Below, one piece after another: positions 8,137 to 23,610 of a stretch of DNA of 64,000 nt (the first letter of the stretch is position 1; each line of letters starts with the position of its first letter). The notes beneath the pieces were generated by a model. That model did not search any database and had not been told where the DNA came from. It worked only from the letters and a program-made list of their open reading frames with translations. This DNA is from a bacterium (GTDB lineage Bacteria > Patescibacteriota > Minisyncoccia > Phycocordibacterales > VMGT01): NCBI GenBank assembly GCA_030697645.1, contig JAUYPI010000015.1, forward strand, positions 15,583 through 79,582, given 5' to 3'. A program made the position numbers and the translations under genes.

Positions 8137-8328
8137 ATGAAAATTTTCAATTTTCAATTTTGCAATTTTCAATCAATTTCCAAGTACTCAATTTTCAAAC
8201 ACGACGCCGTTCGTCATTAAGTCATTGCAGCATTGAAAATTTATTGAAAATTGTAAATTGAAAATTATGAACACCGGCGCTTGGTTTGACATTTGAGTTT
8301 GCTCCAATTTCGGATTTTAATTTGTTGT
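8137..8328. repeat. Hairpin-array element (AATTTTCAAT family)
   Basis: aattttcaattttcaattttgcaattttcaatcaatttccaag... core caaacacgacgccgttcgtcatt ... attgaaaatttattgaaaattgtaaattgaaaatt. Ends at the ATG of the next gene. Confidence 0.75.
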
Positions 8329-8697
8329 ATGGCTCTCGTAAAAAAATATTGGCTCGCACTTGTGGTAACCGCTGTCCTCGGCGCGGGTGCTCTGGCGTAC
8401 ACACTGTTCCGTTCTTCCGAGGTCACCGAGCTCGCATCGAGCGAGTCGAAGGATCCGGTTGTCGCCGCGCAGAGCGCCGAGACGCTCGAACTTTTGAGCA
8501 ACCTCAAAAGATTGAGCTTTGACGAGGCGCTCTTCCGCGATCCACGCTTCAGAAGCCTTATTGATTTTAGCGTTGAGCTCACGCCGGAGCCCAAGGGGAG
8601 GCGCAACCCCTTTTTGCCGTTTAGCGACGAGGGTGGCGGCGCGGCGGGCACCAGCACGTCCGCTCTGGTAGCAACGTCTACACGCTCTCTCCCATGA
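8329..8697 (+). CDS. Hypothetical pilus-associated protein (PilP-like position)
   Basis: About 122 aa with an N-terminal TM (YWLALVVTAVLGAGALAY). Sits between the pilO-like gene and pilB. Identity is inferred only from context. The ORF track starts at 8293. Confidence 0.35.
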   Translation: MALVKKYWLALVVTAVLGAGALAYTLFRSSEVTELASSESKDPVVAAQSAETLELLSNLKRLSFDEALFRDPRFRSLIDFSVELTPEPKGRRNPFLPFSDEGGGAAGTSTSALVATSTRSLP

Positions 8698-8739
8698 GCG
8701 GCGGGAACAGCGCTGTAGCATAAGAAGTGTAAAACGCAA

Positions 8740-8927
8740 AGCGAAAAGCGAAAAACAACAGCACAAAATTTCAAGCTCCAACCAACAAGCTCCAAACAAA
8801 TTCCAATGATTCAAATCTCAATCTCGAAACACGCCGGTTTGAGATTTGAGATTTGGAATTTGAGGTTTATTTGGAAGTTGTTTTTTGGAATTTGGAAATT
8901 CGTTTTCTTTGCGCTTTTCATTTCTGT
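8740..8927. repeat. Composite hairpin-array element (outer arms GCAAAGCGAAAA, inner arms ATTTCCAA / TTGGAAAT, core GAAACACGCCGGTTTGAG)
   Basis: Nested inverted repeats: acgcaaagcgaaaagcgaaaaacaacagcacaaaat...ttccaa... core ...ttggaatttgag...ggaaattcgttttctttgcgc. Ends at the pilB ATG (8928). Confidence 0.75.
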
Positions 8928-10658
8928 ATGAGTTACCTTTCAGTATTAGCAGACAAGGGCTTGCTTAACTCAGAGGACCTCGCGGCCCTTGAAGAGGAGA
9001 TGGTCATCGCGCCCGAGAAGATTGAAGACGGGCTTGTCGCGCGCGGCGTCAGTGCTGAGCAGGTGCTCCGCGCGAAAGGCGGGTACTTCGGACTTCCCGT
9101 GCGTTCGATTTCGAACGAGAAAATCCCCGATGAGATATTGAAGTATATTCCACAGGAATCAGCCCGGCACTACCGCGTTCTACCGCTCGCGCTTGCGGAC
9201 GGCGTCCTTGAGGTCGGCATTGTTGATCCGGAGAATTTCGAGGCACGTGACGCGATTAGTTTCCTCGCGTCAAAAAATCATGTCCCGTTTAAATTTTTTC
9301 TCATATCGCGTGATGATTTTGATCGCGCACTGCGTACGTACGAAGGGCTCACCGCCCAGGTTGGGGAGGCACTCGAGGAGTACGAGACCGAGCTTGGCGG
9401 CGAGGAAGAGGCGATCAGCAAAGCCGCGGAGGATGTCTCGGGGGCGCCGCTTCCTGGGGGCGAGGTGACGACCATCGAGGAAGCGCCGGTGACGAAAATT
9501 GTTGCAACGATCCTTCGCTATGCGATTGAGGGCGGGGCTTCCGACGTCCATATCGAGCCCACGCTCGAGCGCGTACGGGTGCGGTTTCGCGTTGATGGCA
9601 TTTTGCACACGAGCCTCATTTTGCCGATTAAGGTGCACCGCGCCGTGGTAGCGAGGATCAAGGTGCTCTCGAACATAAAACTTGACGAAAAACGCAGACC
9701 GCAGGATGGTCGATTCTCCGCGCGTATCTCGGGGCGCAAGGTCGATTTTCGAGTTTCCTCTTTTCCAGCCTCCGGCGGCGAAAAGGTGGTGCTGCGCATC
9801 CTTGATCAGGAACGAGGTGTGAAGACACTCGAGGGGATCGGCATGCGCGACTCGCATCTCTCTCTCGTGCGGCAGGCGCTGAAGATGCCCTATGGCATGA
9901 TCCTCATCTCCGGTCCGACCGGTTCGGGAAAGTCAACGACGCTCTATGCGATGCTCCAGGAGGTGGATCGCGAGAAGCTGAACGTGGTGAGCCTTGAGGA
10001 CCCGGTAGAGTACCATATCGATGGCGTCGCGCAGTCGCAGGTGATGCCCGAGATCGGATTTACGTTCGCCTCGGGACTCCGTTCTGTACTGCGACAGGAC
10101 CCGGATGTCATCATGGTCGGCGAGATTCGCGACCGCGAGACCGCACAGCTTGCGATCCAGGCCGCGCTCACCGGACATATCGTTTTTTCGACGCTTCACA
10201 CGAACACCGCGGCAGGTGCCATACCGCGACTTATTGATATGGGGGTGGACCCCTATCTTATCGCGCCAACCGTGGTGCTCGTCGTCGCGCAGCGTCTGGT
10301 GCGCACACTCTGCGCCGGGGCGGGCCGTGCGGTCGCCATCGACGGTAGCATTAAACTGATGCTTGAGAAGCAGTTTGCCGACATGCCGAATGCGCATCGC
10401 GATAGGCTGCCTTTGGGAAAAGAAGTATACGAGGCATCGCCGACCCCCGAGTGCGCTTCGGGCGTGCGGGGACGCACCGCCGTCTTCGAGATGTTTCGTA
10501 TGACGAAAGAGCTTGAACGGGTGATTCTCGAAACGCCGACCGAGTCGAGTGTCTATCAACATGTGCGCGAGGTGCAAGGGATGCTCACCATGAAAGAGGA
10601 TGCTATACTGAAGTCATCCGAGCGTATCGTGCCGTTTGAGGAGGTAAATACACTGTGA
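8928..10658 (+). CDS. pilB: Type IV pilus assembly ATPase PilB (GspE family)
   Basis: Walker A LISGPTGSGKSTTLYAML, GspE N-terminal domain, Asp box, His box (HIVFSTLHTN) and the tetracysteine-region equivalent. Start taken at ATG 8928, just after the repeat; the ORF track extends to 8853 inside the repeat. Confidence 0.9.
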   Translation: MSYLSVLADKGLLNSEDLAALEEEMVIAPEKIEDGLVARGVSAEQVLRAKGGYFGLPVRSISNEKIPDEILKYIPQESARHYRVLPLALADGVLEVGIVDPENFEARDAISFLASKNHVPFKFFLISRDDFDRALRTYEGLTAQVGEALEEYETELGGEEEAISKAAEDVSGAPLPGGEVTTIEEAPVTKIVATILRYAIEGGASDVHIEPTLERVRVRFRVDGILHTSLILPIKVHRAVVARIKVLSNIKLDEKRRPQDGRFSARISGRKVDFRVSSFPASGGEKVVLRILDQERGVKTLEGIGMRDSHLSLVRQALKMPYGMILISGPTGSGKSTTLYAMLQEVDREKLNVVSLEDPVEYHIDGVAQSQVMPEIGFTFASGLRSVLRQDPDVIMVGEIRDRETAQLAIQAALTGHIVFSTLHTNTAAGAIPRLIDMGVDPYLIAPTVVLVVAQRLVRTLCAGAGRAVAIDGSIKLMLEKQFADMPNAHRDRLPLGKEVYEASPTPECASGVRGRTAVFEMFRMTKELERVILETPTESSVYQHVREVQGMLTMKEDAILKSSERIVPFEEVNTL

Positions 10659-10731
10659 GCTTGGAGAGTAGAGGGTAGACACGGATAAAACGGCACTGAG
10701 TTGCCCGTCCCACTTTCCACTTTCTCGTCAC

Positions 10732-11121
10732 ATGAGCGAAAATGAAAAACAAAAAAAGCAACTCCTGCTTATTGATGACGATGAGTTTCTCATTGATATG
10801 TACTCCACGAAGTTTACGGGGGCAGGGTTCGCTGTTATGGCGATGCGGAGCGTAGATGAGGCCCTCGGGAAGCTGCGTGAAGGGTACACACCTGCCATTA
10901 TCCTTCTTGATCTTGTCATGCCCACGGTTGGCGGCATTGCATTTTTGAAAGCGAGGCGAGATGAGCGCCTTGCGCCTGATGCGGTCGTCATTGTGCTCTC
11001 AAATCAGAGTGATGAGGCGCGCATCGAGGAGGCGAAGAAGCTTGGGGCGAAGGGATATATTTTGAAAGCGAACACCGTACCGTCGGAGGTATTAGAGCAG
11101 GTGCAGGCGCTTGCGGGTTAA
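10732..11121 (+). CDS. Single-domain response regulator (CheY/PilH-like receiver)
   Basis: 129 aa with receiver-domain acidic pocket residues (LLIDDDE...LLDLVMP) and a conserved K near the C-terminus. Sits between pilB and pilT. Confidence 0.7.
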   Translation: MSENEKQKKQLLLIDDDEFLIDMYSTKFTGAGFAVMAMRSVDEALGKLREGYTPAIILLDLVMPTVGGIAFLKARRDERLAPDAVVIVLSNQSDEARIEEAKKLGAKGYILKANTVPSEVLEQVQALAG

Positions 11122-11232
11122 TTTTCAATGCTCAATTTTCAATCAATTTACAATGGTCCAATTTTCAAACACGACGTCGTTCATCTATTGAAACATTGAA
11201 AATTGAAAATTAGAAATTGAAAATTTTCGTCT
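11122..11232. repeat. Hairpin-array element (AATTTTCAAT family)
   Basis: ttaattttcaatgctcaattttcaatcaatttacaatggtcc - aattttcaaacacgacgtcgttcatct - attgaaacattgaaaattgaaaattagaaattgaaaatt. Ends 9 nt before the pilT ATG. Confidence 0.8.
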
Positions 11233-12294
11233 ATGGATTACCACAAAGAATTCGAAAGGCTGGTGGAGATTATCTCGAATGAGAACGCGTCCGATCTCCA
11301 CCTTGCAGAAGGGCGTAACCCGATCATCCGCGTGGGGAGCTTCCTCGCGCCACTTTTGAAGTGGCCGGCACTCACGCGCGAGAACATGGAAGGCTATATG
11401 GGAGTTTTGCTATCGAAGAAGAATGAGGCACGATTCCTTGAAACGCGCGAGGTTGACTTTTCGTTTGGTTTACGCGACGTGATGCGTTTCCGCGGGAACG
11501 GGTACATGCAGCGGGGGCTTCTCTCGTTCGCGCTTCGCGTGATCCCGCGCGAAATCCGTACACTTGCGGAGCTCGGCCTTCCGCCGATACTCGAAACATT
11601 TGCGGGACGGCGGCAGGGGTTTTTTCTGGTTGTGGGGCCGGTGGGGCAGGGCAAGAGCACGACGCTCGCTTCGATGGTAGAGATCATTAACCGCACCCGC
11701 GCCGAGCATATCATCACGATCGAGGATCCAATCGAGTATATCTATGAACCCAAGAAGGCTATTATTGATCAGCGGGAAGTGCGCATTGATACCGGCGACT
11801 TCAAAACCGCCCTCCAATCAACATTCCGCCAGGATGTCAATGTGATTCTCGTCGGGGAGATGCGCGATCCTGAGACCATGGCGACGGCAGTGACCGCGGC
11901 GGAGACGGGACACCTCGTTTTCTCGACGCTCCACACGAATAATGCTTCACAGACCGTGGATCGCATCATTGACTCATTCCCAGCGACCCAGCAGGAGCAA
12001 ATCCGCACACAGCTTGCAGGATCGCTCCTCGGCATATTCTCGCAGCGGCTCCTGCCGCGGATCGCGGGCGGGCTCTCTCCGGCCTATGAGCTTCTCGTGA
12101 ATACCCCCGCGACTGCGAATCTCATCCGTGAGGGGCGGACCCATGAACTGCCCTCGGCCCTCGAGACCGGTTCCGAGCATGGGATGGTGGCGCTCAACCG
12201 CTCGCTCGCCGAACTCGTTGGCGCGGGAGAGATCTCGGTGGAGGATGCCTATACGCATTCGTATAATCCGCAGGCGTTGGAGAAGATGCTCTAA
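11233..12294 (+). CDS. pilT: Twitching motility ATPase PilT
   Basis: Walker A VVGPVGQGKSTTLASMV, followed by IITIEDPIEY and the AIRNLIRE-like region (ATANLIREGRTHEL). 353 aa. Confidence 0.9.
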   Translation: MDYHKEFERLVEIISNENASDLHLAEGRNPIIRVGSFLAPLLKWPALTRENMEGYMGVLLSKKNEARFLETREVDFSFGLRDVMRFRGNGYMQRGLLSFALRVIPREIRTLAELGLPPILETFAGRRQGFFLVVGPVGQGKSTTLASMVEIINRTRAEHIITIEDPIEYIYEPKKAIIDQREVRIDTGDFKTALQSTFRQDVNVILVGEMRDPETMATAVTAAETGHLVFSTLHTNNASQTVDRIIDSFPATQQEQIRTQLAGSLLGIFSQRLLPRIAGGLSPAYELLVNTPATANLIREGRTHELPSALETGSEHGMVALNRSLAELVGAGEISVEDAYTHSYNPQALEKML

Positions 12295-12359
12295 AACGAA
12301 ATTGCTCGACCTGTCACCTGTCGAGGCGGCATGGTTCAAGGTTGCCTGGAGGAGTGCCG

Positions 12360-12531
12360 GCACGAGAAATTTTCAATTTCCAATTTTCAATTTCCAATCA
12401 ATTTTTAATTACTCAATTTTCAAACACGTCGTCGCCATTGAGTCATTGAAGCATTGAAAATTTATTGAAAATTGCTCATTGAAAATTGAAAATTAAAAAT
12501 GTCTGCCTTTGGTTTCCCCCTTTAGCATTTC
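12360..12531. repeat. Hairpin-array element (AATTTTCAAT family)
   Basis: gaaattttcaatttccaattttcaatttccaatcaatttttaattactcaattttcaaacacgtcgtcgccattgagtc ... attgaaaatttattgaaaattgctcattgaaaattgaaaatt. Confidence 0.75.
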
Positions 12532-13773
12532 TTGCGATTGTCTAGGATTTTTGATACTGGTATGCTTTTTCGATACACTGCCTATGACGCGGCTGGTCAG
12601 GAGTGCTCGGGCGAAATTGAGGCCGTGAGTGCGGATATTGCGGTCGGCACACTCCAACACCGCGGGCTTGTGATCGCCTCCCTTGAGGAGGCGGCGGGTG
12701 GCGGGGGGCTTTTTGCGGCGAAGCTCACATTTTTCGACCGCGTTACCACCAAGGACCTCGTGATTCTCTCGCGGCAGATCGCGACTCTCTTCGAGGCGCG
12801 GATATCTGCGCTCCGTATATTTCAGATGCTCGCATCGGACGCGGAGAAGCCGATCCTCCAGCGGATATTAGGGCAGATTGTTTCTGACATCCAGGGTGGC
12901 AGCTCCCTGTCCATGGCACTGGGGAAACACCCACGGGTGTTTTCGGCGTTTTATATCAATATGGTCGCCGCTGGCGAGGAATCAGGGAAGATTAACGATG
13001 TCTTCATGTACCTCGCGGATTATTTTGACCGCTACTACCAGGTCACGGCAAAGATTCGCGGCGCGATGGTGTACCCTGCGTTCATTCTCACCGCCTTCGT
13101 GGGCGTGATGGTGCTCCTTCTGACGCAGGTCATCCCGCAGCTTGCGGACGTGCTGCGCGAGGCAGGGCAGGGAGTGCCTATCTACACACGGGTCGTTATC
13201 GGCATGAGCACCCTACTCGTTGACTACGGCGTGTTCGTGGCGGCTGGCGTGATTGGGCTTGGGTTTGCGCTCTGGCGGTATCGTGCCGCAGAGGGCGGCC
13301 GTGTGGCGTTTGACCGTCTTGAGATATCGGTCCCTATTTTTGGGCGTCTTTTCAAACTCCTCTATCTCTCGCGCATCGCTGACAATCTCCATACCATGCT
13401 TGCCGCGGGCGTCCCCATGGTGCGCGTGCTCGAGGTCTCATCATCGGTCGTCGACAACGTGGTCTACGAGACGATTCTCAAGGACGTCGTCGAGGCGGTG
13501 CGCGGCGGCGCGTCGGTCTCGGAGTCCTTCGGCCGCTACGAGGAGATACCCGGCATCATGGTGCAGATGATCAAGGTCGGCGAGGAGGCGGGAGAGGTAG
13601 GCACCATCCTGAAGACACTTGCGGTATTTTATCAGCGCGAAGTGAATAGCGCCGTCGACAGCTTGATTTCGCTTATTGAGCCGGCACTGGTCATGATCCT
13701 CGGCGGCGGCGTCGGCATCGTTGTTGCATCGGTGCTGATACCCATTTACAATATCGCGACGAGTATACAGTAG
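12532..13773 (+). CDS. pilC: Type IV pilus inner-membrane platform protein PilC (GspF family)
   Basis: Two GspF repeats with three TM segments. 12532 is a TTG; the first in-frame ATG is 12562 (MLFRYTAYDAAG) and is probably the true start. Confidence 0.85.
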   Translation: MRLSRIFDTGMLFRYTAYDAAGQECSGEIEAVSADIAVGTLQHRGLVIASLEEAAGGGGLFAAKLTFFDRVTTKDLVILSRQIATLFEARISALRIFQMLASDAEKPILQRILGQIVSDIQGGSSLSMALGKHPRVFSAFYINMVAAGEESGKINDVFMYLADYFDRYYQVTAKIRGAMVYPAFILTAFVGVMVLLLTQVIPQLADVLREAGQGVPIYTRVVIGMSTLLVDYGVFVAAGVIGLGFALWRYRAAEGGRVAFDRLEISVPIFGRLFKLLYLSRIADNLHTMLAAGVPMVRVLEVSSSVVDNVVYETILKDVVEAVRGGASVSESFGRYEEIPGIMVQMIKVGEEAGEVGTILKTLAVFYQREVNSAVDSLISLIEPALVMILGGGVGIVVASVLIPIYNIATSIQ

Positions 13774-13900
13774 AAGTCAATTTCCAATTTCCAAATTTTC
13801 AAATCTCAAACACGGAAAACGTTCGGGTTTGGAAATTGGAGCTTTGAGATTTGGAGATTGTTTGGAAATTGTAAATTTGGAACTTGGAAATTCGAGTCTT
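13774..13900. repeat. Hairpin-array element (arm ATTTCCAA / TTGGAAAT, core CAAACACGGAAAACGTTCGGGTTTGG)
   Basis: caatttccaatttccaaattttcaaatctcaaacacg...cgggtttggaaattggagctttgagatttggagattgtttggaaattgtaaatttggaacttggaaatt. Ends 6 nt before the secF ATG at 13901. Confidence 0.75.
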
Positions 13901-14812
13901 ATGTTCGTTATTCGCCACAAGTTATTTTTCATCATTTTTTCCACTACGCTCGTGGTGCTCTCGCTCGCGGCTGCGGCGATTTTTGGCGTGCGGCTCTCGA
14001 TTGATTTTACCGGCGGGACGCTCGTCGAGGTGAGCTATCCGGGCGGGAGGCCTTCTGTCGCGGAGTTTGAGGAGCGCTTGGGCGTGCTTGTGCTCGACAA
14101 TTTTTTGCTCCAGCCGGCAGGCGAGGGTGGCTACATACTGCGAACGAGGGAAATTCGGTCCGACGAGCGCGCGGCGCTCTTTGATGCGCTTTCATTCGGT
14201 GGCTCGCGCGAGGTCCGCGAGGAGCGATTTAGCGCGATTGGCCCTGCGGTTGGTGAGGAACTCAAGCGAAAGAGTGTCGTCGCGCTTGCGGTCGTCCTCG
14301 GCATGATTATTCTTTTCGTCGCGTGGGCGTTCCGCAGAGTATCAAAGCCGGTGCCGTCATGGAAGTATGGCACGGTGGCGGTGCTCACTCTTTTCCACGA
14401 TATCACCATCCCCATGGGTGTATTCGTGGTGCTTGGCAGGTTTGCTGGCGTTGAGATCGATATTCTTTTTGTTACCGCGCTGCTCGCCATCCTCGGGTAT
14501 TCGGTGAGCGACACGATTGTCATCTTTGATCGCATTCGCGAGAACCTGTTACATAACGAGGAGTACCGCGTGCGGGAGGAGTTCGCCGCGACGGTGGGCA
14601 AGAGCCTTGAGCAGACGTATGTACGCTCGATCAACCTTTCCATCACGACCGCGCTCGTGCTTGCGGCGCTTCTTGTCTTTGGCTCAAGCGCTCTGTGGCA
14701 CTTCGCGCTGGTACTCATGATCGGCGTCGTCGCCGGCAGCTACTCATCAATCTTCCTCGCGAGCCCACTCCTCGTCGTGCTTCGAGGCCGAGCGCAAGAA
14801 AAGAAAACGTAA
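13901..14812 (+). CDS. secF: Protein translocase subunit SecF (SecD/SecF family)
   Basis: Six-TM layout with the conserved SecDF motif GYSVSDTIVIFDRIREN. The 303-aa size fits SecF. Start taken at ATG 13901. Confidence 0.75.
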   Translation: MFVIRHKLFFIIFSTTLVVLSLAAAAIFGVRLSIDFTGGTLVEVSYPGGRPSVAEFEERLGVLVLDNFLLQPAGEGGYILRTREIRSDERAALFDALSFGGSREVREERFSAIGPAVGEELKRKSVVALAVVLGMIILFVAWAFRRVSKPVPSWKYGTVAVLTLFHDITIPMGVFVVLGRFAGVEIDILFVTALLAILGYSVSDTIVIFDRIRENLLHNEEYRVREEFAATVGKSLEQTYVRSINLSITTALVLAALLVFGSSALWHFALVLMIGVVAGSYSSIFLASPLLVVLRGRAQEKKT

Positions 14813-14860
14813 CTCACCTATACCGTCGCGGCTTGCTCGGCGGTTCGTGATTAAATTTTT

Positions 14861-14902
14861 GCATTTGCAATAACTCTGCGATCGCAGAGTTATTGCAAAT
14901 GC
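14861..14902. promoter_or_regulatory. 42-bp perfect palindrome GCATTTGCAATAACTCTGCG-AT-CGCAGAGTTATTGCAAATGC (GCGATCGC centre)
   Basis: Perfect dyad between the secF stop and gmhA. A near-identical copy lies at 40032..40073. It could be an operator or a terminator stem. Confidence 0.5.
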
Positions 14903-15025
14903 CACAAGTGACCACGCGTTGCTTTTCGCGTTTGCTTTTAGAGAGCGCAGCTGCTACTCTGCCTCATAGGTTGACCTTTTTTAAGATATATACGAGCCGA
15001 AACAACGAGACGAGGAGGAGAGCCC

Positions 15026-15631
15026 ATGGGACAGTTGGCGTGGAATTGCCAGTTTTTTCAGTACCTGCAACAGATCGATCAGCTCGCCGAGAAAATGCGG
15101 AACGATAAGGAGCTGGTTCGAAGCGTTGAGCATGCAACCCAGTGCCTGATTTCTACCCTGGGCACTGGCCACAAGATCCTCATTGCCGGCAATGGCGGCA
15201 GCGCGGCGCATGCGCAGCACTTTGCGGCCGAGCTCGTGGGTCGCTTTGCGAGGGCGCGACGGGCGCTGCCAGCACTCGCGCTCACGACCGACACCTCGAT
15301 CATCACGGCGTGGAGCAATGATTTTTCGTTTGAGGATGTGTTTGCGCGGCAGATCGAGGCGCTTGGCGCACAACGCGATATTTTTCTCGCCCTCTCAACG
15401 AGCGGTAATTCTTCGAACGTGATAGTCGCACAGAACGCGGCAAAGTTGCGAGGCCTTAGGATGCTGTGCCTTTTGGGCAAAGGCGGCGGCAAGCTTCTCG
15501 AAGCGTGTGAGCTCGAAGACTGTATTGTCGTGCCGTCGGACAACACGCAGCTTATCCAGGATGCGCATCAGTGGATTTTGCATCATTGGTGCGCGGCAAT
15601 TGATGAGGCGTTCTCGTCGATGGAGCGGTAG
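15026..15631 (+). CDS. gmhA: Phosphoheptose isomerase (SIS domain) GmhA
   Basis: SIS-domain motifs ILIAGNGGSAAHAQHFAAEL and FLALSTSGNSSNVI. About 190 aa. Confidence 0.7.
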   Translation: MGQLAWNCQFFQYLQQIDQLAEKMRNDKELVRSVEHATQCLISTLGTGHKILIAGNGGSAAHAQHFAAELVGRFARARRALPALALTTDTSIITAWSNDFSFEDVFARQIEALGAQRDIFLALSTSGNSSNVIVAQNAAKLRGLRMLCLLGKGGGKLLEACELEDCIVVPSDNTQLIQDAHQWILHHWCAAIDEAFSSMER

Positions 15632-15704
15632 GATGATTGCGCGGCTACTGCGGGACATCCGATGTCCCGCAGTTCTGTAAACCGGAAAAAACAAAAGGGG
15701 CGAA

Positions 15705-16703
15705 ATGATGAATAGCGGTGCGCAGGGGTTGAGAGACATTGTTCTATCCTGGCAGGGCAAGCGCATCGGGGTGATCGGCGACGTGATGCTCGACCACTAT
15801 ATTGAGGGCGAGGTCACAAGAATTTCCCCCGAGGCACCGGTGCCGATCGTGAACGTCAAGCGGGAGTGGTATGCCCCTGGCGGTGCGGCGAATGTTGCGG
15901 CGAATATCGCCTCACTCGGCGGGGAAGTTGAGCTCAGTGGCGTGATCGGCGTTGATGAGGCGGGGGACCAGCTGGTGCGTGAGCTTAAAAAGCGCGGTGT
16001 GAGTTTTCGCGCTACGTGTTTCCCCGACCGTCCCACAACGGAGAAGACCAGGATTCTGGTAGGCAATCAACAGTTGGTGCGCATTGATCGAGAAGCGTGT
16101 ACATCAGTTGATTCCGGGCGTATGCAGCAACTATGGAATGAGCTCGTGGATTGGAAGCAGGCGTGGGACGTGGTTGTAATTTCTGACTACGCGAAGGGCG
16201 TTCTCGCCACGGGTCTCCCTCCGCACATCATTGAATGTGCGCGTCGGCGTCAGAAGCCAGTCATCGGCGATGCGAAACCACAGAACATCAGGGCGTTTTA
16301 TGGCGCCACGGTTTTAATGCCGAACGAATTGGAGATGCGCGCCGTTTTAGAGGGGCTGCATGTCGAGAATTATTGCGCTGCTGCAAAGACGCTCGAGACT
16401 TTATTTTTGGTGACACTTGGCGAGAAAGGTATGGTGTCTGCTGACGCGGAGTCGATAGAGGAGTATCCGACGATACCACGCGATGTGTCCGATAATGTCG
16501 GCGCGGGCGATACTGCGACAGCGGCAGTTGCGCTTGCACTTGCCTTTGGTACCGCGATTCCTGACGCCGCTCGAATCGCAAACGCCGCCGCTGGTGTCGT
16601 CGTCGGCAAGCGTGGCACGGCAACGGTCTCGACCGATGAGCTGCTTGCGGCGCTTGATGAGATGGGCGTGCATGAAATGCACCCGCCGTCTCGGCCGTCG
16701 TGA
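15705..16703 (+). CDS. hldE: D-beta-D-heptose 7-phosphate kinase (RfaE/HldE domain I, PfkB family)
   Basis: PfkB carbohydrate-kinase pattern GVIGDVMLDHYIEGEVTRISPEAPVPIV...GGAANVA with a C-terminal GAGDT motif (VGAGDTATAA). Sits next to gmhA. Confidence 0.75.
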   Translation: MMNSGAQGLRDIVLSWQGKRIGVIGDVMLDHYIEGEVTRISPEAPVPIVNVKREWYAPGGAANVAANIASLGGEVELSGVIGVDEAGDQLVRELKKRGVSFRATCFPDRPTTEKTRILVGNQQLVRIDREACTSVDSGRMQQLWNELVDWKQAWDVVVISDYAKGVLATGLPPHIIECARRRQKPVIGDAKPQNIRAFYGATVLMPNELEMRAVLEGLHVENYCAAAKTLETLFLVTLGEKGMVSADAESIEEYPTIPRDVSDNVGAGDTATAAVALALAFGTAIPDAARIANAAAGVVVGKRGTATVSTDELLAALDEMGVHEMHPPSRPS

Positions 16704-16786
16704 GGCGGCGAAAAATCGTCCTCCAAGCCTGTAAAACGTTACGGGGCAGCTTCTTATTCTAAGAAGCTGCCCCCCTTTTTCGATCT

Positions 16787-17962
16787 TTACGCGAGGAGCT
16801 CAGCGAAGCGACGCCTGTCTTCTATATGCTGCCGAAGGTATTGCATGTAGGGAGTTCCGCCCGTCCCGACATCAGATCGGTTGTATGCACTCGAGTGCGC
16901 CGTCTGATCCTGAATGTAACGTTGCGGATAGCCGAAGTGTATTTCGGAAAATTCCACCATGAGCATCAGAGAGCGATGGAGTTCCTCGCACAGTGCCGGG
17001 TACGTCCTCTGGCAGCCAAGCGCGTAGAGGAGGAGCGATTCGTCTCCTTGTTGGGTCAGAATGGCGAGATCCTTGAGATACTGCCGATGGTGCGATGGCA
17101 TATAATTTGGCATGTCCCGCAAATACTCAGCGAATGCTCCGTCAGTTCGGTGCGGGATGCCAAAAGCGCAGTCGAGAGCAGGAACGATGAGACTTTGTGA
17201 TCCGCTCTCGCCCCAGAAATCCTGCGGTACGTCATCCCAAAAACCGCTGTAGATGACGGGGTGCAGGCGGAAACCCTGGATGTACGGACGCACCATGCTG
17301 AAATACGCTCCCGGATTACAGTGCTCGGGCATGCGTCTGAGGTGCGCATTCATTTTTTCGAGGATCCCTGCGCATTCCCTCAAGAGTGTAATCATCCTTA
17401 CTGCGTCATCGGCAATCCGCGCGTGGTGGAGTTCGGCGAGGAGCGACGGGATCCGTGCGGCAGACGCTTCAATGGCAACATGGATTGCGTTAAACCATCT
17501 GGCATCTTCTGTGCGCAGAAAATACTGCTGCAGTTCGATGTTGTCCGGCTCCAGTTTTCCGTCCGGATCAATGAGCTCCCAGTTCCAGAGCAGGAACGGC
17601 GCGTAGGAGAGAATGGACTTCATGCCGAGACGCCTCGCAAGGTAGACGAGGACTGCTGAGAGCGGTGACTTGATGGACGCCGTCGGAGGCGTCGCACCCC
17701 ATACCCACGCGGCTCCGAGAAATGTTGCCGTGCGGAATAAAAGACGCGCCTGTGCCGGCGGCATCGGTTTCTCCAATGCTTTCTTCGTTATCGCAAGTCG
17801 TGCGATTTCGTCGCACGCGGTGCCGCGGAGGAGGAGCTCGGGAAGGCGTTGTGCAACTTCGAGCCATTCGTCGAACGGCGGTTGTAGGCTATCGGCGCAT
17901 CGCTGAAGGCAGCCAAGCTCTGTGTCGATACCGTAGAGTTCCGAGAAGATTTTGTGATCCAC
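16787..17962 (-). CDS. Indoleamine 2,3-dioxygenase (IDO)-family heme dioxygenase homolog
   Basis: FWDDVPQDFWGESGSQSLIVPALDCAFGI...EYLRDMPNYMPSHHRQYLKDL matches the IDO core FWEDPKEFAGGSAGQSS..FDVLLGI...FLQDMRRYMPPAHRNFL, including the proximal His region. 391 aa. The family match is from memory, not a search. Confidence 0.65.
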   Translation of the reverse strand: MDHKIFSELYGIDTELGCLQRCADSLQPPFDEWLEVAQRLPELLLRGTACDEIARLAITKKALEKPMPPAQARLLFRTATFLGAAWVWGATPPTASIKSPLSAVLVYLARRLGMKSILSYAPFLLWNWELIDPDGKLEPDNIELQQYFLRTEDARWFNAIHVAIEASAARIPSLLAELHHARIADDAVRMITLLRECAGILEKMNAHLRRMPEHCNPGAYFSMVRPYIQGFRLHPVIYSGFWDDVPQDFWGESGSQSLIVPALDCAFGIPHRTDGAFAEYLRDMPNYMPSHHRQYLKDLAILTQQGDESLLLYALGCQRTYPALCEELHRSLMLMVEFSEIHFGYPQRYIQDQTAHSSAYNRSDVGTGGTPYMQYLRQHIEDRRRFAELLA

Positions 17963-18163
17963 TGGCTACTCCTTTAAGGAAGAGTGGTTATTGTCGGGTG
18001 GGGAACAGACGCTCACCATATGCTAGCGATTCTTGTTTTTTTTGTCAATCATAGGACATACGGTCGGCGATCAGGACACGTGTAACGATGGCACTTGATC
18101 GCCTCGAAATAGAGGCGGTCGTAGAGGAAGTTGCGAACATGATCTTCGGCGGTCACCTGGACG

Positions 18164-19570
18164 TTGCTCTCGCCCGTGCAGTGGTTGACCTCTCGTTTGT
18201 TTTCGTCTATAAAACTGGAGATGACTTCCAGCTTAAAATACGTAGTCAAGACCGCTGCATTTCTCGCGGTGCCGTATGCTCTGACTGCTGCGATTATCTA
18301 TCTTGCGTTCTCAACGACCTATAGGCCGATTGAGGAATACAGGATTGTTCGGTTCGTCGTTGTCCTCTTCTTCGTGCCGGTAGTCTTGAAGTATGCGCTT
18401 CACCTACTTGTTGCACCGTTTTATCCCGTGGTCGAGTCCTCTCAGGCAAGACGATTACGATCCGCCATGCTGTCGGTGTCCGTGCTTATACCAGCGTATA
18501 ACGAAGAGGTTGGCATACAAACGACGCTGCGATCAGTGCTTGCCACCGCGTACCCACATCTCGAGATCATTGTCATCAACGATGGATCAACCGATCGCAC
18601 ACACCGCCTTGTCGTGGACTTTATTCGACACCAGAGGAAGACACAGTCGTCTCCAGCCACGATACGATACCGCCAGATAGTAAACGGCGGCAAGGCGCGC
18701 GCACTAAACGTCGGCCTATCCATGGCACACGGCGATATCGTCATTACGATTGACGCCGACAGTGTCATGGGCAAGGACGCCATAGTCAACATGGTGCGGC
18801 GCTTTACGCACTCGCGAGTGGCGTCTGTCGCCGGCAACGTTGCCATAGGCAACAAGCATGGTCTTCTCGGACTGGTTCAGCAGCTCGAATATCTCTACGG
18901 ATTTTATTTCAAGCGTGCGGATGCGCTTTTGAACGCAGTCTATATCGTCGGCGGCGCTGCAGCTGCGTATCGTCGGGATGTGATTGAGGCACTCGGCGGA
19001 TTCGACGAGCACACTATCACAGAAGATATCGAGCTTTCCACACGTCTGCAAGATCACGGCTATATGGTTCGCTACGCTGCAGACGCGTGTGTGCTGACCG
19101 AGGGGCCCGAAACGTTTTCCGGGCTCTGTCGGCAGCGATTGCGTTGGAAGTTTGGCCGGCTGGTGACGTTCTATAGATACCGCCACCTCTTTTTCAGCAC
19201 TGATCATCACCATAGTTTTTTCCTAAGCTTTGTGATTCTCCCGATGGCGCTGTTTGCGGAGTTTCTTCTCTTGCTCCAGGGCGCCCTGCTAACAATCTTT
19301 TATATCTATATAGTGCGCACGAACGACTTTATTCCACTCATGGTCGTGATTATACTGCTGACGTGTATCATTATCTGGCAAATTTTGTCGGATACCCAGT
19401 CGCGCTACCATCGGAATCTGTTTTTGCTCGCCCCAGTCGCGTGGTTCCTTTTTTATCTGCTAGATATCGTAGAATACCAGGCGTTGATTCGGAGCATGTG
19501 GAATCTCCACCGTCGACGGCGTCCTTTGTGGCAGAGATGGAATCGTGTCGGCGTTTTCAGCGCGACGTAA
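18164..19570 (+). CDS. Family 2 glycosyltransferase, membrane-embedded (PgaC / cellulose-synthase-like)
   Basis: GT2 motifs VLIPAYNEE, INDGSTDRT, D-x-D (TIDADS), and Q-x-x-RW (CRQRLRWKFG), flanked by N- and C-terminal TM helices. The likely start is ATG 18221. Confidence 0.75.
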   Translation: MLSPVQWLTSRLFSSIKLEMTSSLKYVVKTAAFLAVPYALTAAIIYLAFSTTYRPIEEYRIVRFVVVLFFVPVVLKYALHLLVAPFYPVVESSQARRLRSAMLSVSVLIPAYNEEVGIQTTLRSVLATAYPHLEIIVINDGSTDRTHRLVVDFIRHQRKTQSSPATIRYRQIVNGGKARALNVGLSMAHGDIVITIDADSVMGKDAIVNMVRRFTHSRVASVAGNVAIGNKHGLLGLVQQLEYLYGFYFKRADALLNAVYIVGGAAAAYRRDVIEALGGFDEHTITEDIELSTRLQDHGYMVRYAADACVLTEGPETFSGLCRQRLRWKFGRLVTFYRYRHLFFSTDHHHSFFLSFVILPMALFAEFLLLLQGALLTIFYIYIVRTNDFIPLMVVIILLTCIIIWQILSDTQSRYHRNLFLLAPVAWFLFYLLDIVEYQALIRSMWNLHRRRRPLWQRWNRVGVFSAT

Positions 19571-19783
19571 GCCCTTCTTCTTCCTGTGTGCGTGTCGCCG
19601 TCCTTGCACACCACAGGTTGTCGTGGTCACCCCAGCTGCATCGGCTATAGTGGCGAGCATGACATGCGCCCACCATGAGCGATCTTTACTACGTTAACCG
19701 CCCATGCGCATGACGCGCATGGGCGCCGCTCTGTCCGTTTTCTACATTGGCCAGTCTTTGCGTTCGAGCGCGCCCACGGTACA

Positions 19784-20404
19784 ATGATTCGTGGACTGTA
19801 TTGGGTATCCTACAAGGAGGTGAAAATGGCAAAGATCCAAAATAGAGTGATGCGCTCGGTCGTGGGCGCATTTTCTCATGGGGTCGGAAAATATAGCGAA
19901 GAAAAGGAGTGCGGCGAGGCGATACACTGGACTCGGAGTGGTGGAAGTATTGGCCGTGAAAGGCGTCGCGCCTACTACCGGCTGCTCGAGAATTATGCGC
20001 AGGATTACTGCCTCTGGGCGCGGGAGCATGTCGTCGTCCTGCTTCGAAAAAAGTTCGTATTTTACCAAATGCCGGGTGGGGTGACGGAGAGTAGCGGCTG
20101 TTTTGCCTCGGAGGCGGTTCAGGACTTTTGCGTGTTCGCTTGGAATGCGCTCGCTGGTTTGCGTCTTCTGTGCAACCCGCGTCGACTGCTCTCTATAGAC
20201 AAGAGCGTAGGAGCACGCATGCTCGAGCAGGCTCTTGCCGGCCTGAAGACGCTCTTTGAGCTCTGCCGACCGCTTCTCACCGGCGAGGCACTGCGACGTG
20301 TTTTTCGCAAATTTCGTCTCTGGTGGCACGAGTGGTGCGTACACGTGAGAGGCCTGCGCGAGCTCATCCGTATATACTGGCCTCCATCATCCTCCGGCTC
20401 GTGA
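19784..20404 (+). CDS. Hypothetical protein
   Basis: 206-aa ORF with a hairpin terminator after it (cccgcccgcgca-tttttt-gtgcgggcggg at 20412..20445). No recognisable domain. Confidence 0.35.
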   Translation: MIRGLYWVSYKEVKMAKIQNRVMRSVVGAFSHGVGKYSEEKECGEAIHWTRSGGSIGRERRRAYYRLLENYAQDYCLWAREHVVVLLRKKFVFYQMPGGVTESSGCFASEAVQDFCVFAWNALAGLRLLCNPRRLLSIDKSVGARMLEQALAGLKTLFELCRPLLTGEALRRVFRKFRLWWHEWCVHVRGLRELIRIYWPPSSSGS

Positions 20405-20553
20405 TAGTAAACCCGCCCGCGCATTTTTTGTGCGGGCGGGCAAACATTTGTGCACGACCGATTTTTCCTCCACTGGTTTAGGGTTGAGCATGTCTGGAGC
20501 GTGAACATCTTTGCCGAAAATACCACCGTCGCCCGCTCACTACAAAAGTGGCC

Positions 20554-20582
20554 TTGACCGCGCGCGGGGCTTCGGCTATAGT
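20554..20582 (+). promoter_or_regulatory. Candidate rRNA promoter (TTGACC-17 nt-TATAGT)
   Basis: Near-consensus sigma-70 -35 and -10 hexamers with a 17-nt spacer, about 180 nt upstream of the 16S 5' end. Confidence 0.4.
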
Positions 20583-20764
20583 AGCTAGGCGGTGTCTTCA
20601 AGGCATGCGCGCGAGAGTTCTTTGACAACAGAATAAGCATACACACAAGACAAAGCAAAAACAAAACGTCTATTCCTTAAAAAAACAGAGAGCAGAAGAA
20701 GTTGTTCCTTCTTTTGTTCCGTCCACAAATAGGGAGGTTGGAGATACTCCAACTTCTATAATTT

Positions 20765-20803
<39 letters not shown>

Positions 20804-20851
20804 GATAAGGCATGCAAGTCATACGGGCCGCACCTCATTGCATTCGGTGCG

Positions 20852-20990
20852 GAATTTTCAATTTTCAATTTTACAATTTTCAAATAATTTCCAATGATTA
20901 AATTTCCAATTTCCAAACACGACGTCGTCGGCGTTTGAAAATTGACCCATTGAAAATTTATTGAAAATTGAAAATTGATAATTGAAAATT
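20852..20990. repeat. Hairpin-array element (AATTTTCAAT family) inserted in the 16S V1 helix
   Basis: Same arm unit and core (caaacacgacgtcgtcggcgtt) as the pil intergenic copies. Flanked by hairpins ccgcacctcattgcattcggtgcgg and gccgcaccgagtgtggcgaggtgcggc. Confidence 0.8.
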
Positions 20991-21190
20991 CCGCCGCACC
21001 GAGTGTGGCGAGGTGCGGCTAGTGGCGAACGAGGCAGTAATACGCAGGAACGTACCCTGGAGACGGGCATAACCAGCCGAAAGGTTGGCTAATTCCCGAT
21101 GGTCCGAGCACATATTTTTGGAGAAAAACAAAAGGCGCATCCTGTACCTGTATAGATACTTTGGATGCGCCCTGCAACATTGAGCGGTTT

Positions 21191-21310
21191 CTAGAGGAAC
21201 AGGAAAGTAGCAATCATTACGGCGATGATACCGACTAAGACCCAAGACATCCAACGAAGCTGACTTGGGCCATAGTCTATTCTTCCGCTCTGTCCTCTCG
21301 CGATTTTCAT
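21191..21310 (-). CDS. Candidate 39-aa single-TM peptide antisense to the 16S V2 insertion
   Basis: aggaggTCGTCatg SD-ATG, then MKIARGQSGRIDYGPSQLRWMSWVLVGIIAVMIATFLFL. It is below the 60-aa cut-off of the ORF track. Coordinates are approximate to a few nt. Confidence 0.3.
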   Translation of the reverse strand: MKIARGQSGRIDYGPSQLRWMSWVLVGIIAVMIATFLFL

Positions 21311-22157
21311 GACGACCTCCTTTTTCGCTGAAGAAAGAAAAGCATAGGGGTCTATATATTGTCAAGTATCTTACTTGGCTTCCAAAAATATGTGCTCGGT
21401 AAAGGAGCAATCTGCTCCGGGAGCGGCCTGCGGGCTATCAGCTAGTTGGTGGGGTAACGGCCTACCAAGGCTCTGACGGCTAGGGGGGGTGAGAGCCCGA
21501 TCCCCGCCGATGACACTGCGACACGGGTCATACACCTACGGGTGGCAGCAGCCGAGAATATTCGACAATGGGCGAAAGCCTGATCGAGCGACGCCGCGTG
21601 GTGGATGAAGCACTTCGGTGCGTAAACACCTTTTATGAGGGAAGAAGTTCGCCGCACCTCATTGCATTCGGTGCGGACATTTCGATATATCGAAATTTCG
21701 AAATATCGAAATGTCCGCCGCACCGAGTGCAGCGAGGTGCGGCGGATTGACGGTACCTCATGAATAAGGGGCTCCTAATCACGTGCCAGCAGGAGCGGTA
21801 ATACGTGAGCCCCAAGCGTTATCCGGAATCACTGGGCGTAAAGGGTGTGTAGGCGGCCGCGTTAGTCCTCCGTTAAATCCCACGGCTCAACCGTGGAGCT
21901 GCGGAGGATACGGCGCGGCTTGAGGGCGCGAGAGGTGTGCGGAACTCACGGTGTAGGGGTGAAATCCGTTGATATCGTGGGGAACACCAAAAGCGAAGGC
22001 AGCACACTGGCGCGCCCCTGACGCTGAAACACGAAAGCGTGGGTAGCGAAGCAGATTAGATACCTGCGTAGTCCACGCCCTAAACTCTGTCCGCTAGCTT
22101 TTCGGAGTATCGACCCTCTGGGAGGCGAAGCTAACGCGTTAAGCGGACCGCCTGGGA

Positions 22158-22189
<32 letters not shown>

Positions 22190-22722
22190 AGACGGGGACC
22201 AGCACAAGCGGTGGATCATGTGGTTCAATTCGATGGTAAACGAAGAACCTCACCAGGGCTTGAAATCCAGATGAACTCGCCTCGAAAGGGGTGCGGCCTT
22301 CACAAGAGGCATCTGGACAGGTGCTGCATGGTTGTCGTCAGTTCGTGGCTTAAGTTGTTCCCTTTAGTGGGGTAACGAACGCAACCCCCGTCGCCTGTTA
22401 TACGTGTCAGGCGAGACTGCCCAGCCCAAAGTGCGGCTCACTTCGGTTCGCCGCAGAATCAAGAAGTATGAAGTATGAAGTATGGAAATGTACGAAGAAA
22501 AACCATAATTCATGATTCATAATTCTTGCTTCTGCATCGAGCGGAGCGAGATGCATTTCGGGCTGGGAGGAAGGCGGGGATGACGCCAAATCAGCATGGC
22601 CCTCTGACGCCCTGGGCTACACACGTGATACAATGGCCGGTACAACGGGTCGCGACGGGGTAACCCTGAGCCAATCCTTATAAAGCCGGCCTCAGTTCGG
22701 ATTGAGGTCTGCAACTCGACCT

Positions 22723-22757
<35 letters not shown>

Positions 22758-23610
22758 TATACTGCGGTGAATACGTTCTCTGGTCTTGTACTCACCGCCC
22801 GTCATGCTAAGGGAGCCGGGAATACCCGAAACCCCGCCCTTTGCTCGCGGAGCAAAGGGCGGGATATATCGAAATTTTGAAATATCGATATGTCCCGCCC
22901 TTTGTTCACTTCGTGAACAAAGGGCGGGGTTACGGTAAGCTCGGTGACAGGAGCAAAGTCGTTGAGACATACTGTCTTGTTGCGACCTATGTGAGCGATC
23001 ACATAGTAAAACCCAACTGATATCGGTGAACCCCAGCGTACACAATTCACAATTTCTAATTTCAATTTTGAATTAGTCATTGAGAATTCGTAGTTGCGCC
23101 AGCTGGGCAATACCGAGGGAAGCCCACTAGGAGCTAGTTTTTTAACTGGTAACTAGTTGCGGCCCCGTAGAGACTTCCTGCACTTTTCTAGAAGTAGAAG
23201 GCGCAGGGGATGGCGTTGAAAAATTCACGCTATAAAACGTTGGCCCCAGCCGTAAAGTTTCCTAAAGAAACATTACGGCTGGGTGAAGATATAGTCCGTG
23301 CCTCAATGTAAATTGAGGGTAACACATGAACAAGGCACCGGTAGCGGAAGCTGTTGGTGGAATCATTCCTAGATCCCGTCCCAAGGCGCGTAAAGCGCGC
23401 CATGTTTAAATATTTAAATGTTTAAACATGGCCAAAATTCGCTTTGCGAATTTTGGCGAGGACTGATCAGGTCGGTCCGAGGGTGGAAGTTTTTCTTCCA
23501 TTCCTCGGAATCATGCTGTGGCTGTCAGCTAAACCAGCTAGCGGAGTTAGATGCAAATTTAGCTTCCAACCGTGGACGGAACAAAAGAGGGAACAAAAAA
23601 CACTCAAAAA

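Follow-up and report, generated by a model that had tools for sequence, protein, structure and literature searches.

Antisense cassettes bounded by inverted repeats in 16S ribosomal RNA genes of candidate-phyla-radiation bacteria, and a candidate 39-residue membrane peptide gene in helix h10

The 64,000-nt stretch of contig JAUYPI010000015.1 that we analysed (the window) comes from a bacterium of the candidate phyla radiation (CPR, Patescibacteria) whose DNA here has about 55% G+C, and its plus strand carries a 16S ribosomal RNA (rRNA) gene with several insertions. One insertion occupies the loop of helix h10 and holds, on the strand opposite the rRNA, a 39-codon open reading frame (ORF) to which an earlier note on this DNA had drawn attention. 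We find that this ORF lies within an ordered set of sequence elements bounded by an inverted repeat, and that similar sets recur in other CPR 16S genes. The host gene and the parts of the insertion are as follows, the latter in the order in which the antisense strand would be read.

20758..23375, plus strand: host 16S rRNA gene with several insertions (Rfam SSU_rRNA_bacteria, 1273.7 bits)
21104-21399: whole cassette, 296 nt, in the loop of helix h10, delimited by 16S homology and fold, with its cargo read from the minus strand, opposite to the rRNA
21381..21399: promoter-proximal arm of the inverted repeat, minus-strand reading CCGAGCACATATTTTTGGA
21360..21378, minus strand: small hairpin CAAGTA-AGA-TACTTG, its 3' arm running into TTGACA
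21365→21360, minus strand: TTGACA, -35-like, 15 nt inside the repeat, absent from the earlier note
21341..21346, minus strand: TATGCT, the sole -10-like hexamer, 13 nt past TTGACA, a non-canonical spacing
21316..21321 (21321→21316), minus strand: Shine-Dalgarno (SD) sequence AGGAGG, 5 nt (TCGTC) before ATG
21191..21310 (21310→21191), minus strand: 39-residue ORF with ATG start and AGGAGG-TCGTC upstream, protein MKIARGQSGRIDYGPSQLRWMSWVLVGIIAVMIATFLFL
21123..21172, minus strand: intrinsic-terminator-like element with a 9-11-bp G+C-rich stem, GGCGCATCC/GGATGCGCC (21172→21134)
21104..21122: terminator-proximal arm of the inverted repeat, a perfect 19-bp match to the other arm

Comparison by BLAST with relatives, and with about 200 CPR 16S genes, shows that core 16S homology stops at 21104/5 and restarts at 21398/9. 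The tip of h10, which in CPR usually reads GGTCCCGCAAGGGTAAAG, is replaced by the insertion; the h10 loop measures 296 nt as against about 10 nt in most of these genes, and the conserved blocks on either side are spaced 340 nt apart here versus 52-90 nt in most sequences. The existence of the insertion, given earlier as about 320 nt at 21105-21425, is therefore upheld, but its 3' end is not: 21400-21425 (TAAAGGAGCAATC...) is native 16S and the true size is 296 nt. Nor does a plain expansion of variable region V2 describe it as well as a cassette-like, probably mobile, element does. The insertion folds as a single long hairpin-closed domain (z = -4.8 for the sense and -5.7 for the antisense strand), with 20 consecutive pairs in the closing stem of the minimum free energy fold. 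Underlying this stem is the perfect 19-bp inverted repeat (21104-21122 / 21381-21399; chance expectation 0.01), which had been overlooked and whose inner ends read ATTTTTGGA/TCCAAAAAT. There is no target-site duplication, the flanks GGT and TAA having no direct repeat, and the same holds for the insertion of another locus, L159 (described below).

Between the arms, the 39-codon ORF with its AGGAGG-TCGTC-ATG start stands in the sequence exactly as earlier described. Strong hydrophobicity over the last 20 residues (best 17-residue Kyte-Doolittle mean 2.74) agrees with the earlier prediction of one transmembrane (TM) helix, and the N-terminus is basic (K2, R5, R10, R19). We propose from these features that the ORF encodes a single-pass membrane peptide. 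The terminator-like stem, also missing from the earlier account, begins 18 nt past the stop codon and is followed by TTTTGTTTTT (21133→21124), which adjoins the repeat; its hairpin is worth about -27 kcal/mol and is present in the minimum free energy fold, and an automated terminator scan skipped it because its loop exceeds 8 nt.

An ATG ORF of at least 39 codons appears in 31% of dinucleotide-preserving shuffles of the insertion interior (P=0.31), and therefore the length of the ORF on its own is unremarkable. This figure is what one would expect of a chance ORF in a structural rRNA insertion, either a non-coding intervening sequence (IVS) or an h10 expansion, in which AGGAGG, hairpin and T-run would be coincidences of a structured, A+T-rich RNA. 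Such a reading also draws on the good folding of the sense strand, on the lack of a canonical promoter and of any homologue of the peptide in the databases searched, and on the description of most CPR insertions of this size as ORF-less (PMC11270868). Against it, the combination of AGGAGG at 5 nt, ATG, hydrophobic peptide and terminator after the stop is expected only about 1e-4 times in 296 nt (a scaled expectation). The same ordered architecture, moreover, returns in one orientation in nine other cassettes, which obey a length law of 3 nt per codon and include one cargo that is conserved in a relative. With these comparisons, set out below, we regard a chance ORF as distinctly unlikely.

Sister cassettes were sought in CPR 16S loci, 117 of them taken from species-representative genomes and 120 of metagenomic origin, with a search pattern in the conserved block just upstream of the insertion. 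All fetched DNA was scanned for TTTTTGGA...TCCAAAAA pairs with outward complementarity, and the cassettes were located on the rRNA strand with Rfam and BLAST. L022 and L159 were recognised among the fetched loci and the pair scan gave further elements; in all, nine further cassettes of the same architecture emerged, listed here with the window copy by locus, site (16S reference position) and predicted cargo.

Window, h10: 39-residue membrane peptide
L159, h10: no ORF; RNA of about 75 nt
L022, h10: 50-residue two-helix peptide
L019, ~294: 48-residue membrane peptide; repeat identical to that of L159
L214a, 736: 38-residue membrane peptide
L230, 736: 51-residue glycine-zipper-like two-helix peptide
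L228, 947: 84-residue zinc-ribbon-like protein
L182, ~410: 90-residue protein
L017, ~410: no ORF
L214b, ~160 nt upstream of the 16S 5' end: 66-residue protein

All cassettes found sit in or beside 16S genes, at h10, ~294, ~410, 736, 947 and in the 16S leader, thus at five or more different sites. Their parts follow a constant order: repeat, -35/-10, SD-bearing leader, ORF (or short non-coding RNA), hairpin and/or T-run, repeat. The family is defined by a TTGACA 5-55 nt from the repeat and a -10 a further 16-18 nt on; the window copy has TTGACA at the homologous place, its one -10-like hexamer being 13 nt away. The window repeat matches the family repeat in its ends, TTTTTGGA / TCCAAAAA, and all of the nine other cassettes except L022 have a ...A(A/T)TTTTTGGA core at their ends. 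AGGAGG stands 5-8 nt ahead of ATG in six cassettes, and promoter-like sites at the repeat-proximal end match the consensus at 9-11 of 12 positions in eight of the other nine. In L230 we read TTGACA-17-TAAGCT, which lies under the -10 threshold of the scan. A promoter matching at 12/12 is our reading of the L241 relative. The CAAG..CTTGAC(A) hairpin/-35 module of the window is common to L159, L214a, L214b and L230, with a variant, GTCAATT/AATTGAC, in L019. Eight of the predicted cargoes are proteins: five hydrophobic peptides 38-51 residues long and three soluble proteins (66, 84 and 90 residues). The others are non-coding RNAs (75-100 nt). For several cassettes the cargo ORF appears as a called gene in public contigs, from 2 to more than 50 of them, and the 51-residue peptide is present in more than 50. 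Two scans of viral contigs with the repeat returned one unpaired chance match only.

Two of the other h10 insertions illustrate how far the likeness extends. In L159 the insertion is 162 nt long (794-955 of that locus, plus strand), its repeat CCCAGCACAAATTTTTGGA is nearly the same as that of the window, and the same small hairpin runs into TTGACA; there follow TTGACA-17-TATACT with an upstream TG, and a 15-bp terminator. Its 18-nt repeat recurs identically at ~294 in L019. The insertion of L022, 282 nt long, carries antisense TTGACT-17-TATAAT (11/12), AGGAGG, a 50-residue hydrophobic ORF and T8. No homologues of the L022 peptide were found, and homology between the window and L022 elements was considered and rejected, as the two have nothing in common beyond the architecture, their repeats and their peptides being unrelated.

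The predicted cargo RNA of L159 (~862-938, about 75 nt) starts GTTGTAACAAGGCAC-AATCAGC-GGAA-GCTGAT and resembles the 16S 3' end and helix h45 including the GGAA loop (compare AACAAGGCACCGGTAGCGGAAGCTGTTGG at 23329-23357 of the window). It could be a decoy for factors that bind or modify h45, or a captured rRNA fragment.

Enrichment was assessed by shuffling a set of 114 distinct insertions, 66.6 kb in total, taken from about 200 CPR 16S genes. Antisense ORFs of at least 30 residues with AGGAGG and ATG were observed six times against 0.27 expected (maximum 2 in 200 shuffles), and those that are also at most 60 residues long and strongly hydrophobic four times (three without the window) against 0.02. 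Similarly, promoters matching at 11/12 or better numbered 12, with 2.3 expected. The lengths of the cassettes are likewise informative, since they follow 156 + 2.98 × residues (r = 0.966); this law of 3 nt per codon implies that the variable part is exactly one ORF on a constant frame of about 156 nt.

Conservation of a cargo is visible at the protein level in L182, whose 90-residue cargo has an 89%-identical relative at the same site in four independent metagenomes. The two differ at 24 of 273 nt with no indel or stop, seven codons having synonymous changes only and ten non-synonymous ones, and in the relative both the repeat (GGTCC/GGACC to GGCCC/GGGCC) and the terminator stem have changed in a compensatory way; it also has a perfect TTGACA-17-TATAAT promoter and AGGAGG. 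Ratios of non-synonymous to synonymous change were also sought in the many contigs with the 51- and 38-residue cargoes; these were unusable, the cassettes being invariant and the sample biased by exact-protein look-up.

Other loci show different cargoes within one frame. L245 and L253 agree at 88% in their flanks, at 82% in repeat and leader and at 100% in the final 23 nt, and the ORFs are unrelated, a 51-residue two-helix peptide in the former and a 38-residue one-helix peptide in the latter. A further locus, L256, was set aside as an example of natural cargo exchange, for it resembles a join at the cassette repeat and is possibly an assembly chimera. In fact, the L214 locus alone holds three copies of the cassette frame with one repeat, namely the 38-residue cargo, an empty 63-nt shell and the 66-residue cargo in the 16S leader, and empty shells of 61-63 nt with the same repeat are found in related loci as well.

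L214, copies of the cassette frame: 8281-8533, 9673-9735 and 11119-11441
Related loci, empty shells: L245:3082-3142; L252/L253:2787-2847

A short h10 hairpin, CCGAGCACATAA-TACG-TTATGTGCTC, occurs in the unrelated CPR 16S gene of L126 (1114-1143), and its stem matches the outer 11 bp of the window repeat; it may mark a place where a cassette has lost its interior.

Because of the recurrent family, the enrichment, the length law and the protein-level conservation of a sister cargo, the 39-residue ORF, put forward earlier as a candidate gene, looks genuine and is probably a real cargo gene. We therefore hold, with moderate confidence, that the window insertion is one copy of a family of antisense expression cassettes bounded by inverted repeats, that the 39-residue ORF is its cargo, and that its orientation is the outcome of selection.

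The orientation of the family is indeed uniform: all ten cassettes are antisense to the rRNA. Conversely, nuclease cargoes in related repeats are sense in six of six cases (GIY-YIG in L133, L217, L162, L110 and L238; LAGLIDADG_3 in L174). The antisense bias is expected because a terminator in the sense orientation would truncate the 16S rRNA, the product of an essential, single-copy gene; turned the other way, the terminator would also halt cargo transcripts before they form RNA antisense to the 16S 5' domain. Nuclease genes could ride on the rRNA transcript, with the opposite bias. Antisense orientation is thus best explained by selection through terminator polarity, and does not alone imply regulation by the rRNA.

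In the mechanism that we propose, the cassettes that occupy hairpin loops and the leader of CPR 16S genes would each be a self-contained, insulated expression unit on the strand opposite the rRNA. Such a unit runs from the repeat ...ATTTTTGGA through a sigma-70-type promoter (its -35 TTGACA often in a small hairpin), an AGGAGG leader, a cargo consisting of one small ORF or a non-coding RNA of 75-100 nt, and a hairpin with T-run, to the repeat TCCAAAAAT.... In the sense pre-rRNA the repeat arms would pair as a helix of 19-25 bp, and the insertion would either protrude or be cut out, presumably by RNase III as with classical intervening sequences. The pre-rRNA would then hold the full complement of the cargo mRNA and convergent rRNA polymerases would cross the cargo promoter. 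Given this complementarity and head-on transcription, cargo expression would be inversely tied to rRNA synthesis, and the peptide would be made only while rRNA synthesis is low.

Several observations weigh against this explanation. A sigma-70 promoter scan of the minus strand of the window insertion passed nothing. The TTGACA-TATGCT spacer is 13 nt versus 16-18 nt in all nine other cassettes, and 17-18 nt past TTGACA stands CTTTTC/TTTTCT, with no -10. Lacking a canonical promoter, the window copy may be silent or decaying. AGGAGG is an imperfect match to the apparent anti-SD, CAUUCCU, and a strong SD precedes only three of ten called genes nearby, so the earlier remark that most genes of the window lack a canonical SD was roughly right. 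(Sequestration of the SD by an upstream GACCCCU was considered and not used, since it depends on the transcription start.) The peptide found no homologue among 5.8 billion clustered proteins in a word-based search, for which one valine was added to reach the 40-residue minimum; a full HMMER search of 1.84 billion cluster representatives gave a sole match, to a repeat protein (E=3.5e-4), that we judged spurious. Back-translated patterns of the peptide had no match in JGI metagenome contigs, Pfam, PADLOC and Rfam had none for peptide or insertion, tblastn found no relative in any fetched locus, and by exact look-up the ORF has not been called in any public assembly. L159, whose repeat and leader come nearest to those of the window copy, is without an ORF. 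L214a, L214b and L022 have weak terminator hairpins, and a clear T-run is missing from L017. Finally, what keeps the repeats and the CAAG..CTTGAC hairpin conserved could be the structure of the sense RNA and not a role as DNA or promoter signals.

Some of these points suggest that the window insertion is a relic, its ORF having once been a working cargo and the copy now being transcriptionally dead after the loss of about 4 nt from the promoter spacer, with the ORF intact only because the insertion is young or the sense RNA is structurally constrained. The short spacer fits, and decay of cassettes is evident in the empty shells and ORF-less derivatives; likewise, the L037 copy of the LAGLIDADG element is disrupted, and the intervening-sequence ORF of Coxiella is reported to be decaying and not expressed in vivo (PMC4990558). 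However, neither the ORF nor the SD, the terminator or the perfect 19-bp repeat shows damage, and we read an extended -10-like TGACAATAT with TTGGAA 18 nt upstream, a possible substitute promoter to judge by its letters; promoter rules for CPR are in any case not established. We consider a dead copy very unlikely, and note that the window copy may be weakly expressed or a recent relic.

The cassette explanation can be given a functional refinement with the same anatomy, a module like those of type I toxin-antitoxin systems. Here the 39-residue peptide would be a membrane-damaging toxin and the pre-rRNA, or the excised insertion RNA, its cis-antisense antitoxin, such that the toxin would appear when rRNA transcription stops or the balance is disturbed, and would stabilise the element or drive dormancy. 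Known type I systems (hok/sok, tisB/istR, fst, aapA/isoA) share with the window a gene for a small hydrophobic peptide, a strong SD, full overlap by an abundant antisense transcript and, probably, location on a mobile element. Indeed, the predicted peptide falls under the usual size and topology of such toxins (fewer than 60 residues, a TM helix), having one hydrophobic helix and a basic end; hydrophobic peptides make up five of the eight protein cargoes, one of them glycine-zipper-like; and the position gives full complementarity to the pre-rRNA. A precedent exists in Helicobacter pylori, where a cis-antisense RNA pairs with the rRNA precursor and is cut by RNase III (PMC6582327), and type I modules commonly stabilise mobile elements (PMC7699646). 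The likeness has its limits, however. There is no sequence or RNA-family similarity to known type I toxins or to toxin and antitoxin RNAs (Pfam, PADLOC, Rfam), and the antitoxin would be the rRNA precursor itself. Toxin and antitoxin would lie on the same DNA, so that loss of the element removes both, the soluble or non-coding cargoes elsewhere show that the idea would not be family-wide, and the promoter of the window copy looks defective. From its sequence a toxin role is plausible for the 39-residue peptide; as an account of the module we rate it unlikely.

Among rRNA insertion elements, the cassettes most resemble intervening sequences such as that in helix 45 of the Coxiella burnetii 23S rRNA with its S23p ORF (PMC4990558). 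Both sit at the tip of an rRNA helix behind a long, perfectly paired closing stem of RNase III type, both are sporadic and horizontally spread, and both may contain an ORF. In contrast, the cassette cargo is antisense, has promoter-like, SD and terminator signals of its own and varies between copies, whereas the IVS product (S23p / 23S_rRNA_IVP) is a soluble four-helix protein without its own promoter or ribosome-binding site that is reportedly not made in vivo (PMC4990558). Insertions in CPR rRNA genes are reported in PMC11270868, with reference to Brown et al. 2015, to be removed from transcripts, and LAGLIDADG and GIY-YIG genes are known among their contents (Tsurumaki et al. 2024, PMC11270868). 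This fullest survey of CPR insertions limited its annotation to ORFs with a Pfam domain and described the others as ORF-less; antisense units are unmentioned in it.

The homing-endonuclease insertions share hosts and hot spots with the cassettes, and GIY-YIG insertions at h10 and ~410 have related repeats (CCCAGCAC..TTTTTG..), suggesting a single superfamily. They differ in that the window cargo is antisense, small and without a recognised domain. In our loci the sense GIY-YIG genes, of 83-93 residues, are found at h10 (L133, L217, L162), beside h10 (L110) and at ~410 (L238), with closing repeats CCCAGCAC.TTT.TTTG.., and in L133 and L217 a TATAAT follows straight after the repeat. These elements are the sole lead to a mobility partner: they could be the autonomous partners of the antisense cassettes, and that a GIY-YIG nuclease acts in trans is no more than our guess. 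The window insertion itself shows no group I or II intron fold in 21095-21410 by Rfam, no nuclease gene by Pfam and no GIY-YIG remnant by tblastn, and a decayed GIY-YIG gene on its sense strand is thereby rejected.

Comparable elements elsewhere are miniature inverted-repeat transposable elements (MITEs) and mobile insertion cassettes (MICs), the latter being repeat-bounded, without a transposase and with passenger genes. With these the cassettes have in common terminal inverted repeats, the lack of a mobility gene of their own, variable passengers in a conserved frame, and multiple copies and empty shells per locus; they differ in having no visible target-site duplication, in being confined to or beside 16S genes and in having repeats that double as an RNA helix. 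Genes opposite rRNA genes are also familiar from eukaryotes, for example TAR1 of yeast, antisense to the 25S rDNA. Here too a protein gene with its own expression signals faces an rRNA gene, but the signals are those of polymerase II or the spliceosome and the proteins are others. In addition, antisense homing-endonuclease genes are known in eukaryotic nuclear group I introns (PMC9548176). In the literature searched we found no description of a bacterial rRNA-embedded antisense cassette with its own promoter, SD, small ORF and terminator; among rRNA insertion elements, this family of small antisense units bounded by inverted repeats in CPR 16S genes is thus previously undescribed.

The host 16S gene has further peculiarities, an intron among them.

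~22963-23328 by sequence reading, 22954-23318 by Rfam: group I intron near the 16S 3' end (Intron_gpI, 51.8 bits)

Read from the sequence, the intron lies between ...AAGTCGT and AACAAGGCACCGGTAGCGGAAGCTGTTGGTGGAATCATTCCTAGA, which is the classical position-1506 region. Because the intron splits the 3' part of the gene, the Rfam SSU alignment stops wrongly at 23009, within the intron, and the true 16S 3' end is near 23375. The 3' exon (23329-~23375) includes helix h45, read as CACCGGTAGC-GGAA-GCTGTTGGTG, and the 3' end reads ...GGAATCATTCCTAGA and not ...GGATCACCTCCTTA, from which our own reading of the anti-SD as CAUUCCU follows, unusual by comparison with the common CACCUCCU. The gene as a whole lies within a 25-nt processing stem (20702-20726 / 23572-23596). 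A second family of insertions is present in the same gene at 20827-21019, 21650-21745 and 22833-22935. Those in V1 and V3 have near-identical G+C-rich basal stems (GCCGCACCTCATTGCATTCGGTGCGG / CCGCACCGAGTG..GCGAGGTGCGGC) with A+T-rich palindromes of 8-nt periodicity inside, and between the V3 interior (21684-21716) and 22863-22895 of the insertion at the h44 tip the identity is 94%.

The 64-kb window lacks a 23S rRNA gene, and the rRNA genes are therefore unlinked. Its minus strand carries two tRNA genes (2579-2759) and, at 16787-17962, a gene whose 391-residue protein is a full-length match to indoleamine 2,3-dioxygenase (Pfam IDO, E=1.9e-53), an unusual enzyme in a reduced CPR genome. The organism is also present in SRR13727529. 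No close relative of it turned up in the databases: the nearest 16S genes are about 80% identical to that of the window, and the neighbouring glycosyltransferase has same-species matches and then nothing above 64% identity. One same-species contig, L119 (GCA_034376905.1, JAXMIX010000012.1), is 99.94% identical to window positions 8346-20832 and beyond 20832 switches to a different, insertion-free 16S sequence, probably a chimera that arose in metagenome assembly at the conserved 5' end of the 16S gene. Both same-species contigs end at, or swap 16S within, the first 80 nt of the gene, and a second copy of the window insertion is therefore unreadable.

These cassettes bear on how rRNA genes are viewed, since such genes are seen as pure RNA genes and are masked by annotation pipelines, so that genes embedded in them go unnoticed, and surveys of CPR rRNA insertions have kept only ORFs with known domains. 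If the cassettes are expressed, some of the smallest known genomes would keep protein and small-RNA genes within a single 16S gene, on a mobile element of a new kind, its ends serving at once as repeats in the DNA and as a helix in the RNA, and the output of these genes would be inversely coupled to rRNA transcription by geometry, which would make a simple growth-rate sensor. The family offers promoters, ribosome-binding sites and terminators of CPR for organisms without genetic tools, and is at the same time a warning for 16S-based assembly and taxonomy. Taken to its full extent, our proposal is of an undescribed class of CPR mobile elements, insulated antisense cassettes in rRNA loops, whose repeats would form an excisable RNA helix and whose interchangeable cargoes, mostly tiny membrane peptides and also small RNAs such as the h45 look-alike, would come on only when rRNA transcription falls. 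We offer this joint claim tentatively, as a possibility more doubtful than probable; if it is true, cassettes gated by growth arrest would constitute a toxin or regulator system wired directly to ribosome synthesis.

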